Shown here one piece after another: positions 30,760-36,720 of a DNA stretch of 64,000 nucleotides. A program made the translations under genes and the position numbers. Positions within the stretch are counted from its first letter, which is position 1. The number at the start of each line of letters is the position of its first letter. This DNA is from Halarcobacter sp. (lineage in GTDB: Bacteria; Campylobacterota; Campylobacteria; Campylobacterales; Arcobacteraceae): assembly GCA_963676565.1 (NCBI GenBank), contig OY781089.1, forward strand, positions 480,001 to 544,000. Reading direction: 5' to 3'. A model generated the notes under the pieces. The model made no database searches. It saw only the letters and a list, made by a program, of their open reading frames with translations, and was not told the DNA's origin.

Positions 30760-30910
30760 AGTGGAAAGAGGTAGCTGGAATAATGTTTTATAGTGGTATA
30801 TAATTAGGGCTAAATAGTATGAATAAGAAAATCTAAAACATGTACAAATTTTTAAAATAAAATCTTATAAATTAAATTTATCAATGGAGAAAACACTACC
30901 TCTTTCCACT
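30760..30910. repeat. 15-bp perfect inverted repeat enclosing a 121-nt AT-rich spacer
   Basis: agtggaaagaggtag (30760-30774) / ctacctctttccact (30896-30910) between convergent genes. Confidence 0.8.
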
Positions 30911-30917
30911 ATCTTTT

Positions 30918-30941
30918 AAGGGAAGCTAAAAGCTTCTCCTT
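30918..30941. terminator. Hairpin at the 3' end of hsp20
   Basis: aagggaagct-aaa-agcttctcctt, imperfect stem. Confidence 0.5.
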
Positions 30942-31353
30942 ATTGAATACTAATAACCTTTTTACTTCTACTTTCATCTAGTTTTGGAATAACTAATTCC
31001 AATACACCATCAACTGATTTTGCTTCTATATTTTCTACATCAGCATTATCTGGAAGGGTAAAACTTCTTGAAAACTTACCAAATGAAGTTTCAACTTTAT
31101 AATAATCTTCTTCTTTGACTTCTTCTTTTGTTTTTCTTTCACCAGAAATTGTTAAAACATTTTTTTCTAAATCTACTTTAATATCATCTTTTTTAACACC
31201 TGGTAAATCAACATCAATATGAAAAGATGAATCCTCTTCTCTAGTATTAACTACAGGAATAAATCCACTTACTCCTTCATTTGAAGGATAATTATAAAAA
31301 CTTTTTTCTAATTCCCTCATTTGTCTAAAAGGGTCAAATCTTGTTAATAACAT
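30940..31353 (-). CDS. Hsp20/alpha-crystallin small heat-shock protein
   Basis: DLPGVKKDDI, LTISGER, FGKFSRSFTLP, DGVLELVIPK. Confidence 0.96.
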   Translation of the reverse strand: MLLTRFDPFRQMRELEKSFYNYPSNEGVSGFIPVVNTREEDSSFHIDVDLPGVKKDDIKVDLEKNVLTISGERKTKEEVKEEDYYKVETSFGKFSRSFTLPDNADVENIEAKSVDGVLELVIPKLDESRSKKVISIQ

Positions 31354-33617: not shown

Positions 33618-34579
33618 TGAACTATCTCTGCATGATCAATAAAGTCAAAAGGGAAAATGATATTAAGCTTTTTTGCTAAAGTTGTATTAATTATAATTCT
33701 AGCTTCTTTATTTTTAACTATTTTAATATCATTCACTTTTTTCCCATTTAAAATTTCAAGAGCAGTTTTTGCAACCCACTCTCCTTGCTCTTCAGGCTTA
33801 TTTGCAAAAATCATTAATGCAAAGTTTTTTAAAGTTATATCCCAAGCAGCAGATGGAATTTTAGTTTCTTTTTTAACAAAAGCTTCTAACTCTTCTTTAT
33901 TTTTATTCCAATCTACTAAAGCCCCACTATTTCCAAGTAACAATATATCAACATTGTTTTGTAAATATATAAAATTTTCTTTCCATTCTTCTATTGTTTT
34001 TGCATACTTTGTAATGATTTTTTGATTTAACTGTTTTTCAAAAAATTGATTCTGTAACTTAACACTATAAGAATTATCATCTAAACTGCCTATTCTAATA
34101 CCTTTGGTATATTTTTTTAAAGTATCAACTATTTGAGGTATAAGCTGTACTTCTTCCATTCCTGTTATTTTATTAGGTAATTGTTCATATTTCTTTATAG
34201 TACCATTTATGCCACAAAAAATAATTGGAATAGTTGAATTTTTAAAATGGGGTAAAATAACATATTTAATAGCATTGTCATCGGAAGTAATAATCACATC
34301 AGGTTTAAATTTTTCAATTTGATTTTTAATCTCTAAAGCAGTTTTTATTTTATAGGATTCATTATTATTTCTTTTAGAATCCATCTCAACTCTTTTAAAT
34401 TCAATTGGTAACTTAGATTTAAAAAGCACTTTTTTAATATTATTTTCAATTCCATCACTCCAATAAAGCCCAGTATGATAGGAGTTAATGTAAAAAACCT
34501 TTTTAGGAGAAACACTTTTGGCTCCTAAATAGGAAGTTAAGGTAAATAATAAAAAGAAAAGAACAAATAACTTTTTCAT
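33614..34579 (-). CDS. Periplasmic ABC substrate-binding-like protein coupled to the kinase gene
   Basis: Signal peptide, INSYH..WSD, KPDVIITSDDNA, PIIFCGIN; ATGA overlap with the kinase; ATG 34579 behind AAAGG. Confidence 0.8.
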   Translation of the reverse strand: MKKLFVLFFLLFTLTSYLGAKSVSPKKVFYINSYHTGLYWSDGIENNIKKVLFKSKLPIEFKRVEMDSKRNNNESYKIKTALEIKNQIEKFKPDVIITSDDNAIKYVILPHFKNSTIPIIFCGINGTIKKYEQLPNKITGMEEVQLIPQIVDTLKKYTKGIRIGSLDDNSYSVKLQNQFFEKQLNQKIITKYAKTIEEWKENFIYLQNNVDILLLGNSGALVDWNKNKEELEAFVKKETKIPSAAWDITLKNFALMIFANKPEEQGEWVAKTALEILNGKKVNDIKIVKNKEARIIINTTLAKKLNIIFPFDFIDHAEIVQ

Positions 34580-34636
34580 ATAAGTACCTTTTCTTTTCAT
34601 TATAACATAAAGATTTGATTTTGTAATAATAAAATA

Positions 34637-34732
34637 CTATGCTATTGCTGCAAATGTAGTTGCTATTGTTAGAAAATAGATGATAATAACTATTACATAA
34701 TCTTTTTTATTTGTATTAATTTCTGTTTTCAT
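34637..34732 (-). CDS. Unannotated 31-aa single-TM peptide MKTEINTNKKDYVIVIIIYFLTIATTFAAIA
   Basis: ATG 34732 with strong AAGGAG SD about 8 nt upstream, stop TAG 34637-34639; below the ORF-track cutoff. Confidence 0.65.
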   Translation of the reverse strand: MKTEINTNKKDYVIVIIIYFLTIATTFAAIA

Positions 34733-34781
34733 TTTTTTATCTCCTTCATATAGGAGATAAAAAATCTCCTATATTTTTTTT
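34733..34781. promoter_or_regulatory. Overlapping, mutually exclusive hairpins controlling access to the peptide SD
   Basis: 34733-34745 pairs with 34752-34764 (13 bp); alternatively 34748-34757 pairs with 34765-34774 (10 bp), followed by a T-run on +. Confidence 0.6.
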
Positions 34782-34846
34782 ATTCTAATTAATCTCTTCG
34801 AGACATCATCGCTATTCAATCTTTTCCTTTTTTTTAAAATTTGGCA

Positions 34847-34882
34847 TAAAAAAAGGGGAGAGCTAAGAAGCTCTCCCCTTTT
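34847..34882 (-). terminator. Intrinsic terminator of typA
   Basis: aaaaggggagagct-aaga-agctctcccctttt with U-run on -. Confidence 0.88.
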
Positions 34883-34902
34883 CAGTTTAAAGTTAAGTTC
34901 TG

Positions 34903-36720
34903 CTATTCAGCGAACTTCGCCTTCTTAGCAGCCCTTTTCCTAACTGTAGGATCAAGCTCTCTTTTTCTAACTCTAATCGTTTGAGGTGTAACCTCAACTA
35001 ATTCATCTTCTTCAATCCACTCTAGTGCATTTTCTAGAGACATAACTCTTGGCGGGATAAGCTTAATTGCATCATCAGATCCCGAAGCTCTTACGTTTGT
35101 AAGTGCCTTTCCTTTAATTGGGTTAACATCTAAATCATTTGATTTTGCGTGTTCTCCAATTACCATCCCTACATAAACCTTATCTTGAGGCTTAATGTAC
35201 ATTGTTCCTCTTTCTTGTAGGTTAAAAATAGAGAAACCTAGTGCTTCACCATTTTCCATGGATACAAGTGCCCCGTTTTTCCTTGATTCTACTGTTCCAG
35301 AATATGGCCTAAACTCTAAAAATGAGTGGTTCATAACACCCTCACCTTTTGTATCAGTTAAGAACTCTGTTCTAATACCAATTAAACCTCTTGCAGGAAT
35401 TTCAAACTCTAACCTTGTAAATCCAGCACCCATAGGAACCATATTTGTCATATTCGCTTTTTTCTTTCCTAATTTTTCAATGATAGTTCCAGAATACTCA
35501 TCAGGAGTATCTATTACTAAATGTTCAAATGGTTCCATTACTACACCATTTTCTTCTCTTGTAATAACCTCTGGTCTACCAATTGAGAACTCAAAACCTT
35601 CTCTTCTCATATTCTCAGCTAAGATAGTAATTTGAAGTTCACCCCTACCGTTAACTTTAAATTTACCCTCACCAATTTGCTCATAATTCATAGCAATATT
35701 AGTGTTCATCTCAGCTTTTAATCTTTCATCAATTTTATTTGAAGTAACAAATTTACCCTCAGTTCCAGCTAATGGAGAATCATTAACTGCAAATGTAACT
35801 GAAAGTGTAGGTTCTTCAATATGCATAGGATCTAGTGGCATTGGATTTGCAGGATCACAAAGTGAATCACCTACGTCAATAGTTTCAAATCCAGCAACAG
35901 CACAAATATCTCCAGCTCCAGCTTCTTTGATTTCAATTCTATCAAGACCTTTAAATCCAATAAGTTTAGTAACTCTACCTTTTACTTTTTCACCATCTGC
36001 TTTTACAAGCATTACAGTTTCACCCATTGAAATTTTTCCATTAAAAATTCTAGAAATACCAATTTTTCCAATGAAATTATCATAATCAAGAGTAAATACT
36101 TGAAGTTGAAGACCATTTTCTTCACTACCTTGTGGTTTTGGAACTTCATTTAAAATAGTTTCGAATAATGGTTGTAAATCTTTTTTCTCATCTTCAAGGG
36201 CATGCATTGCATAACCATCTCTTGCTGCTGCATAAATAACAGGGAATTCTAATTGCTCTTCAGTTGCACCCATTTGGTCAAATAGGTCAAATACTTCATC
36301 AACAACTCTATCAGGTTCCCCAGCTGGTTTATCAATTTTGTTTACAACAACAATTGGTCTATGTCCTAAAGATAAAGCTTTTTTTACAACAAATTTAGTT
36401 TGAGGCATAACACCCTCTTGTGCGTCAACTAGTAATAATACTGAGTCAACCATTTTAAGAACCCTTTCAACTTCTCCACCAAAATCGGCGTGACCTGGAG
36501 TGTCAATAATATTAATTCTAACTCCCTCATAATCAATAGCTGTATTTTTAGAAAGAATTGTAATACCTCTTTCTTTCTCAATATCATTACTATCCATTAC
36601 TCTTTCATCGATTTGCGTATGAGCTGCGAAAGTTCCAGATTGTTTCAGTAATTCATCAACAAGTGTAGTTTTACCGTGGTCAACGTGTGCGATTACGGCA
36701 ATATTTCTAATGTCTCTCAT
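34903..36720 (-). CDS. typA: Translational GTPase TypA/BipA
   Basis: [56 protein letters not shown]. Confidence 0.98.

Follow-up and report, generated by a model that had tools for sequence, protein, structure and literature searches.

In a 64,000-nucleotide (nt) stretch of Halarcobacter sp. DNA (contig OY781089.1, positions 480,001 to 544,000 of the forward strand; here called the window and numbered from its first letter), we analyzed a minus-strand element that lies downstream of typA and consists of a small open reading frame (ORF) and the leader in front of it. The leader holds a short upstream ORF (uORF) and three segments that can pair in two alternative ways around the Shine-Dalgarno (SD) sequence of the small ORF, giving either of two helices, P1 and P2. 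The parts of the element are listed here from its 5' to its 3' end.

34825 to 34829, minus strand: SD of the uORF (AAGGA; GGA at 34827 to 34825), read from the sequence; an SD-like motif is found in 46 of 50 leaders
34769 to 34819, minus strand: uORF, TTG at 34819 plus 15 codons (LNSDDVSKRLIRIKKI), with its stop codon UAG (34771 to 34769) inside the decoy arm; read from the sequence and from relatives
34764 to 34774, minus strand: segment 1, the decoy SD arm AUAUAGGAGAU, which is the 5' arm of P1; from the P1 pair count
34748 to 34764, minus strand: segment 2, the anti-SD UUUUUUAUCUCCUAUAU, which is the 3' arm of P1 (34758 to 34748) or the 5' arm of P2 (34764 to 34752)
34733 to 34745, minus strand: segment 3, the true SD with an A-run (AGGAGAUAAAAAA), which is the 3' arm of P2; from the P2 pair count
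34637 to 34732, minus strand: main ORF (ATG at 34732, stop at 34639 to 34637) for a 31-amino-acid single-pass membrane protein; from the coding pattern and family signature

The small ORF and its protein family

A first-pass annotation of this DNA had described an ORF of 31 amino acids with one transmembrane segment at 34732 to 34637 on the minus strand. The ORF is present just as described, and the coding type of its substitutions marks it as a real gene. Its translation, MKTEINTNKKDYVIVIIIYFLTIATTFAAIA, has a polar N terminus followed by one predicted membrane span, and when we searched the DNA of relatives and then called ORFs, we found it after typA in all 20 same-genus loci that were fetched. 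Members of the family share the signature KDYxI[VLI]xxI[YE]xx[TS][IV], in which D11, Y12, I14, and I18 are invariant among 18 sequences and the invariant Asp sits at the membrane boundary. At the invariant residues, entropy is close to zero in the first and second codon positions and is 1.0 to 1.3 bits in the third, a pattern typical of selection on a protein. We also observed that genera g36 and g37 have Glu in place of the mid-membrane Tyr19 (..IEF.., ..IEL.., ..IEI..; alignment A3), and such a charged residue within the span hints at a partner protein or an oligomer.

A profile built from the 18 sequences found the family in 71 of 184 Arcobacteraceae genomes, representing 13 of 22 genera. 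A broader profile, made from 72 distinct peptides, matched 12 of 24 sampled genomes of this family, and a set of 276 genomes taken from 25 other families in the order gave no match. Of 1.84 billion representative proteins, 35 match; all of them are 30 to 42 amino acids long, and there are no fused forms. Searches of Pfam and NCBIfam returned no family for the peptide of the window, the best E values among the 18 members being 0.2 (Pfam) and 0.057 (NCBIfam), and the best score in the ESM Atlas was 0.82, under the meaningful level. In the literature returned by our search, no paper dealt with this locus in Arcobacter or Halarcobacter as the site of a small protein, a uORF, or a type I system. 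When we looked for paralogs in this genome by tblastn, as the first-pass annotation had proposed, no second copy was found (next-best match E value, 0.15), so the gene is single-copy here. By these comparisons, we take the main ORF to be a genuine, conserved gene for a small membrane protein and the founder of a new family, new in the sense that no Pfam or NCBIfam model matches it, which is found only in Arcobacteraceae. As for function, our guess from the typA and hsp20 neighborhood is a stress-linked inner-membrane protein.

The uORF and the two competing helices of the leader

The leader runs AUAUAGGAGAU-UUUUU-AUCUCCUAUAU-GA-AGGAGAUAAAAAA-AUG. Helix P2 is a 13-bp anti-SD:SD hairpin, in which 34764 to 34752 pair with 34745 to 34733, and it is the minimum free energy (MFE) structure of the 66-nt leader in ViennaRNA (−14.6 kcal/mol; z score, −4.56; none of 200 shuffles as good). 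Helix P1 pairs 34774 to 34764 with 34758 to 34748 as a decoy:anti-SD hairpin and has −14.0 kcal/mol on its own; it beats P2 once more upstream sequence is folded. Because the anti-SD is common to both, P1 and P2 are mutually exclusive. Both hairpins had been proposed in the first-pass annotation, and they are present and exclusive as proposed, except that the decoy hairpin has 11 bp and not 10. Across the whole genome (3.34 Mb), this locus is the only one with the pattern GGRG..CTCC..GGAG..start; three Markov simulations gave 0, 0, and 2 occurrences. Rfam gave no match between 34640 and 34830, its hits being confined to the typA terminator, with scores far under the cutoffs.

We then have the evidence of relatives, for which 50 distinct leaders from 9 genera were compared (alignment A2). 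The CUCC of the anti-SD is invariant in all 50. For P1, 97.5% of the cells are paired, compared to 43 to 74% when the partner strand is slid, and compensatory changes from A-U to G-C occur at the helix base in 5 sequences from 4 genera. For P2, 95.4% of the cells are paired, with compensatory changes at 5 pairs and in 13 cells, whereas slid versions reach 0 to 3 pairs, and none of 500 shuffles reached any of the five measures. The part of P2 in which the U-run pairs with the A-run is specific to this helix, since it is merely a loop in P1, and in an anchored count of this extension 316 of 350 cells are paired and 25 cells are compensatory, a result that none of 1,000 shuffles equaled. Natural variants of P2 include changes from U-A to A-U, G-C, G·U, and C-G at 5 of its 11 pairs, in genera g1, g21, g33, g36, and g37; in the present genome, the A in UUAUCUCC pairs with the U in GGAGAUAA. 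The two helices are also balanced in predicted energy, with mean values over the 50 leaders of −12.37 kcal/mol for P1 and −12.46 kcal/mol for P2 and a difference of −0.09 ± 1.5 kcal/mol. The ORF and both pairings are thus conserved in relatives, with covariation in both helices, and this comparative evidence shows both helices to be under selection.

The uORF was found as the first-pass annotation had given it, with 16 codons from TTG 34819 and a stop at 34769 to 34771 in the decoy arm, and it ends at the decoy arm in relatives as well. An SD-preceded uORF of 10 to 21 codons (median, 16) whose stop lies 2 to 7 nt before the decoy GGRG is present in 46 of the 50 leaders, compared to 2.8 ± 1.8 such frames, and at most 8, when the upstream 110 nt were shuffled (200 trials). 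As stop codon, these uORFs use the UAG within UAGGAG or a UAA immediately ahead of it. In the intergenic alignment, relatives have an SD and ATG-TCC-GAT-GAT-ATG just past the typA terminator and encode peptides of the type MSDD(M/V)SKRINK. Among the 12 sequences of this MSDD class, codons 2 to 4 change at the third position only, and synonymously; therefore, it is the peptide, not a DNA motif, that is conserved. A sigma-28 promoter as the reason for the conserved TCCGATGAT was rejected on the same grounds, its variants TCA GAT GAC, TCT GAT GAT, and TCC GAC GAT being synonymous Ser-Asp-Asp codons. Where another gene is inserted after typA, the uORF is a different one (M..VNFNLL type), and its stop is still at the decoy arm. 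Taken together, the compared leaders show that the uORF is real and that the geometry of its stop codon is conserved. We also considered a stop-codon readthrough fusion of the uORF to the main ORF and rejected it, as the two are in frame here (39 nt, with no stop between them) but not, for example, in L006 (35 nt). In a side observation, the alternative uORFs of L017, L018, L020, and L035 (for example, MNINTNFNLKKE) resemble the N terminus of the main protein (MNNINTN..) and may derive from a partial duplication of the 5' end of the gene.

Several genera encode, directly after hsp20, another subfamily of the small protein (with, for example, peptides that end in ..YIAQ); the loci include L062, L063, L068, L070, L077, L080, L084, and L089 to L096. 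Of the 18 distinct leaders linked to hsp20, 14 have the UAA stop codon of hsp20 in, or at, the 5' arm of a hairpin (GAAGGAG/CUCCUUC) that precedes the SD; in the remaining 4, the hsp20 stop is 8 to 14 nt away and the small ORF is directly coupled to it. The hairpin is typically UAAGAAGGAG..CUCCUUCUUA, with a 3' arm complementary to the next SD. Since the stops of the typA-linked uORFs and those of hsp20 both recur in or at a 5' hairpin arm, a stop codon in the decoy arm is a recurring design. We found no hsp20-linked copy in the present genome. On the minus strand of the window at 30880 to 30945, a hairpin-like AAGGAGAAGC/GCUUCCCUU comes after the hsp20 stop, with no small ORF, and may be a relic of such a copy.

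Models for the control of the small ORF

We think it probable that this leader is a leader-peptide translational attenuator, in which the three segments gate translation of the main ORF and termination at the uORF closes its SD. Segment 2, with its U-run and CUCCU, would pair with segment 3 to form P2, in which the ribosome-binding site is closed, or would pair instead with segment 1, which carries the decoy AGGAG, to form P1, in which the site is open. Counted from the first base of its A-site codon, a terminating ribosome covers about 12 nt. With stops at −2 to −7, a ribosome that finishes the uORF would mask the decoy GGAG and not the CUCCU core of segment 2; with the decoy masked, the anti-SD would be free to close the SD, and termination at the uORF would favor the off state. 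With the 3' end of the uORF free of ribosomes, the decoy would recapture the anti-SD on equal terms and the main ORF would be translated. Exchange between the two folds is predicted to be fast and easy, given the equal energies and the single-stranded toeholds on both sides (in P1 the loop made by the U-run, in P2 the UAU of its loop). Candidate signals are the rate of uORF initiation, the speed of termination and recycling, an effect of the MSDD..R-I nascent peptide, and the choice of transcript start.

Several properties of the element are those of an attenuator. The uORF, as far as sequence comparison goes, is conserved and has its own SD; the helices are mutually exclusive, and one of them holds the SD of the regulated gene; and, if the footprint has the size given above, the ribosome on the uORF would overlap one helix arm for all 46 uORFs. 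In the known leader-peptide attenuators of ermC/ermB, cat, and cmlA, an SD-preceded uORF is combined with exclusive helices, and the position of the ribosome decides the fold. The present leader is like these in its short, SD-preceded uORF, in its exclusive helices with one that sequesters the regulated SD, and in the deciding part that ribosome position would play. It is unlike the ermC/cat type in having three segments and not four; in having a stop codon, not an internal stall site, in the first arm, with termination predicted to close the SD where a stall would open it; and in regulating a 31-amino-acid membrane protein, not a resistance gene, with no inducer known. As to its kind, we therefore class the switch as leader-peptide translational attenuation of altered design, in control of a new small-protein family. 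In SecM-secA and MifM-yidC2, the uORFs encode secreted or membrane-inserted arrest peptides, and a stall opens the SD. The present system shares with both that ribosome occupancy of an upstream ORF would remodel a hairpin holding a downstream SD, and differs in that its uORF peptide is short and acidic, then basic, not hydrophobic. MifM-yidC2 appears as an arrest-peptide sensor in the accessible portion of one report (PMC4423224).

A number of observations weigh against the attenuator. We infer its polarity, in which termination at the uORF turns the main ORF off, from general ribosome-footprint geometry, and for uORF stops at −2 the edge of the ribosome would also cover part of the P2 U-run. 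Four of the 50 leaders have no SD-preceded uORF. Our scan of the region found no promoter for the uORF, and with a gap of about 25 nt between the typA terminator and the uORF start, transcripts may need to read through that terminator. RNAalifold, applied to the MAFFT alignment A2, gave only a misregistered helix of 5 pairs (−0.41 kcal/mol) with no compensatory pairs; the likely cause is that MAFFT sets the decoy and SD off-register in a minority of rows, to which the two competing folds perhaps add. Because of this failure, we counted named structures and anchored pairs instead. The compared sequences are kin, so the shuffle statistics overstate significance. Rearranged leaders occur at L003, L021, and L029 (G010), at L017 (G009), and at L060 (G094), and the gene is wholly absent from 3 of 24 same-genus genomes, where typA is followed by a convergent gene. 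In transcript data, the contigs of two metatranscriptome datasets reach only typA and part of the gene for a substrate-binding protein (SBP) that follows the small ORF; a dataset presumed to be RNA gave one 174-nt contig over 34683 to 34854 at a depth of about 3, and the raw reads of another run gave no match. Among the rearranged leaders, we observed that the decoy of G010 has apparently been shifted to the 3' side of the anti-SD, with an extra helix enclosing both, and that in G009 (L017) an extra hairpin lies between the anti-SD and the SD; such natural variants could be informative on mechanism.

More tentatively, the attenuator may be one case of a family-wide termination-sensing leader, in which helices of equal energy, exchanging by way of their toeholds, are toggled by the ribosome at an upstream stop, that of the typA-linked uORF or of hsp20, so that a stress-linked small membrane protein is made inversely to upstream translation flux; this is possible, though less probable than the attenuator at this locus. 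If it is true, these leaders would make up a separate class among the translational attenuators of bacteria, one in which termination and not stalling is read, and the protein would be a new small-protein family tied to the typA/hsp20 stress neighborhood. Should the mechanism hold, it would provide a compact inverse coupling of the translation of one gene to ribosome traffic on the frame upstream. Small proteins and their leaders are mostly missing from annotation, and here an unannotated family has strong comparative evidence: it spans 13 genera, with the full uORF and two-state leader in 9. The natural compensatory variants already mark the bases to mutate.

The polarity could also be the opposite. 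In this serious rival, based on coupling or re-initiation, the SD would be closed by default in P2 and the small protein would be made only when the uORF, or hsp20 in the paralogs, is translated, with ribosomes that finish the uORF either remodeling the leader or being retained by the decoy SD for re-initiation about 38 nt downstream. Such positive coupling would agree with P2 being the MFE structure in 31 of the 50 full leaders and with the 4 of 18 hsp20-linked ORFs at 8 to 14 nt from the preceding stop, which suggest that coupling is ancestral; by the same geometry as above, stops at −2 would also put the terminating ribosome into the P2 U-run. However, the stop lies in segment 1, outside P2, and termination would have to melt the very helix by which the SD stays open. 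The expected footprint does not extend to the CUCCU:AGGAG core of P2, and 38 nt, with a stable hairpin in between, is a long distance for re-initiation. We consider positive coupling unlikely, while ranking it above the explanations that follow.

The first-pass annotation had pointed to a type I toxin-antitoxin system, which we now regard as improbable. The peptide would be a membrane toxin, and a cis-antisense RNA that starts in or just after the ORF would cover the start codon and SD and end at the complement of P1 and its U-run, while the SD-sequestering folds would block premature toxin synthesis, as in aapA/IsoA. The peptide falls within the small hydrophobic peptides of under 60 amino acids typical of type I toxins, and P2, backed by covariation, is an SD-sequestering mRNA fold of the kind found in their messages. 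The aapA/IsoA systems of Helicobacter and Campylobacter have, according to the accessible portions of two reports, a hydrophobic peptide of about 30 amino acids and SD-sequestering mRNA hairpins (PMC5416894, PMC6733600), and the present locus fits this description and is also from Campylobacterota. On the opposite strand lies the following feature.

34748 to 34784, plus strand: complement of P1 plus a T-run, a terminator-like site of doubtful function; from a scan of 34300 to 35100

It is the only terminator-like site in the scanned region (1 found, 0.2 expected), in agreement with the T-run noted earlier behind the decoy hairpin. The tail of the presumed antisense RNA has at least 5 U residues in 8 positions in 39 of the 50 leaders, an antisense −10-like xATAAT lies at the Asp-Tyr codons in 39 of 53 sequences, and the gene is dispensable in 3 of 24 congeners.

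Against an antisense RNA, TTGATT-N17-TATGCT at 34615 to 34643 on the plus strand, which had been put forward as its promoter, is present, but that role is not supported: the site lies in a 3' flank that differs between relatives, agrees with the consensus at 8 of 12 positions, and is under the threshold of our scan, in a region where promoter-like sites occur at chance (5 found, 3.7 ± 2.0 expected). The xATAAT is a by-product of the invariant GAT-TAT codons and is lost with GAC or TAC (5 and 10 of 53), third codon positions being otherwise free. The antisense P1 hairpin has a mean of −10.5 kcal/mol, compared to −12.4 kcal/mol on the sense strand, and collapses to −4 to −7 kcal/mol in 4 of the 50 leaders because of sense-strand G·U pairs. 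In the P2 extension, we counted 13 G·U pairs on the sense strand compared to 3 C·A cells. The hairpins thus tolerate G·U pairs in the sense RNA, which are C·A mismatches in the antisense RNA, and this counts against the antisense reading. Beyond an antisense RNA with its own promoter, systems of the aapA/IsoA kind have a toxin that is harmful on expression, an antitoxin needed for viability, and an inactive full-length mRNA, with long-distance 5'-3' pairing, that 3' processing activates. With regard to the 3' end of the present mRNA, no terminator-like site was found past the ORF in 51 of 53 distinct 3' flanks.

The gene is, moreover, single-copy, syntenic, and vertically conserved beside typA across 9 genera. 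Its conserved, putatively translated uORF is no part of aapA/IsoA, and neither a conserved uORF nor a decoy SD is described for those systems in the accessible portions of the reports (PMC5416894, PMC6733600); the likeness to AapA/IsoA that had been proposed is real but partial. The present locus is like hok/mok/sok in that a small membrane peptide would depend on a second small frame and on alternative mRNA folds. In that system, the Sok antisense RNA acts on mok, a frame that overlaps hok, while the present uORF ends 38 nt before the main start. On balance, the type I reading is not supported. The first-pass annotation had allowed for an undescribed type I system or a switch-controlled small protein; its observations are confirmed, and its interpretation holds in part, for the switch and the small protein. 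A caution follows from this: a hydrophobic ORF of 30 amino acids with a sequestered SD in Campylobacterota need not be a type I toxin.

A temperature switch that is independent of the uORF, with the U-run:SD helix serving as a thermometer of the fourU/ROSE type, would suit a neighborhood of typA (cold growth) and hsp20 (heat), and we hold it to be very unlikely. The U-run does pair with the SD region, as a U-rich strand does in fourU and ROSE thermometers, which also lie near heat shock genes, and the paralogs are within the hsp20 transcription unit. The predicted difference in free energy between P2 and P1 moves from −0.85 kcal/mol at 5°C to +0.39 kcal/mol at 55°C (−2.1 to +0.1 kcal/mol in this genome). 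This shift is small, however, at about 1.2 kcal/mol over 50 degrees, and P2 is not marginally stable, averaging −12.5 kcal/mol at 37°C and still having −7.5 kcal/mol at 55°C. Classical RNA thermometers are far less stable than P2 at 55°C. Unlike fourU and ROSE, the present leader has a full CUCCU:AGGAG core, a competing decoy, and weak predicted temperature dependence, and a thermometer leaves the conserved uORF and its stop position unexplained.

Least probable of all, and hardly credible in our view, is that there is no switch and P1 is a terminator or stabilizing hairpin left after typA or the uORF, with the SD complementarity arising only because the stem is rich in purines: a P1-like hairpin is still present right behind typA in G022, a genome without the ORF, and RNAalifold gave no good consensus, but compensatory changes fall in the P2-specific part that is merely a loop in P1, no U-run follows P1 on the sense strand, and the helix energies are balanced in 50 leaders. 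A CsrA-controlled leader, considered on account of two GGA motifs, was rejected, as the complete genome has no match to PF02599 while control genomes matched.

Neighboring genes and related loci

Around the element, the window contains these further features.

34903 to 36720, minus strand: typA/bipA, the upstream neighbor (Pfam GTP_EFTU, 5.7e-55; BipA_C, 3e-46)
34848 to 34878, minus strand: GC-rich, intrinsic-terminator-like hairpin of typA (GGGGAGAGC / GCUCUCCCC) with a U-run; from the sequence and the intergenic alignment
34599 to 34627, minus strand: separate extended −10 promoter-like site, ATTACA-17-TGtTATAAT, of the SBP/kinase operon (10 of 12 matches, TG present)

The terminator-like hairpin of typA is kept in most relatives in the intergenic alignment. 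The ATTACA-17-TGtTATAAT site lies outside the switch element and is context only. Genes 3' of the small ORF encode an ABC-type SBP (Pfam ABC_sub_bind) and then a histidine kinase (HATPase_c/PAS/HAMP), and hsp20 lies beyond these two, at 31353 to 30940. In the 328-amino-acid SBP ORF, the first ATG (34600) overlaps the −10 TATAAT of its own promoter-like site, and for this reason ATG 34579 is the more likely start.

In all 22 related loci inspected, typA lies upstream on the same strand, with one inserted gene in between in some. The 3' neighbor is variable: the SBP and kinase pair is there at 8 loci and hsp20 at 5, while 3 loci have a convergent sensor and 6 have other genes. The suggestion that the small protein modulates the downstream kinase does not survive this comparison, and, judging by gene order, we regard the link to the kinase as accidental.

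Two kinds of related loci depart from this arrangement. In L110 (G022), a congener without the small ORF, the typA stop leads straight into a P1-like hairpin AAUAGGAGAAUUUUUCUCCUAUU, beyond which lies a convergent gene; the hairpin could be a relic or could have been reused as a terminator. Divergent members of the family in genus g26 (L083 and L098) are not beside typA or hsp20 and have the anti-SD:SD pair (CUUCCCCUUA .. UAAAGGGAA) alone, with no visible decoy.

At L005, L007, L009, L010, L012, L014, L053, L059, L065, and L068 to L070, the 90 nt that follow the stop of the small ORF contain a TTGACA/TATAAT promoter before hsp20, overlapped by inverted repeats of the CIRCE type (TTAGCACT-N11-AGTGCTAA). 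At these loci, the stop codon TAG of the small ORF belongs to the first TAGCACT half-site, which suggests, by its sequence, that HrcA may control hsp20 right beside the small gene.

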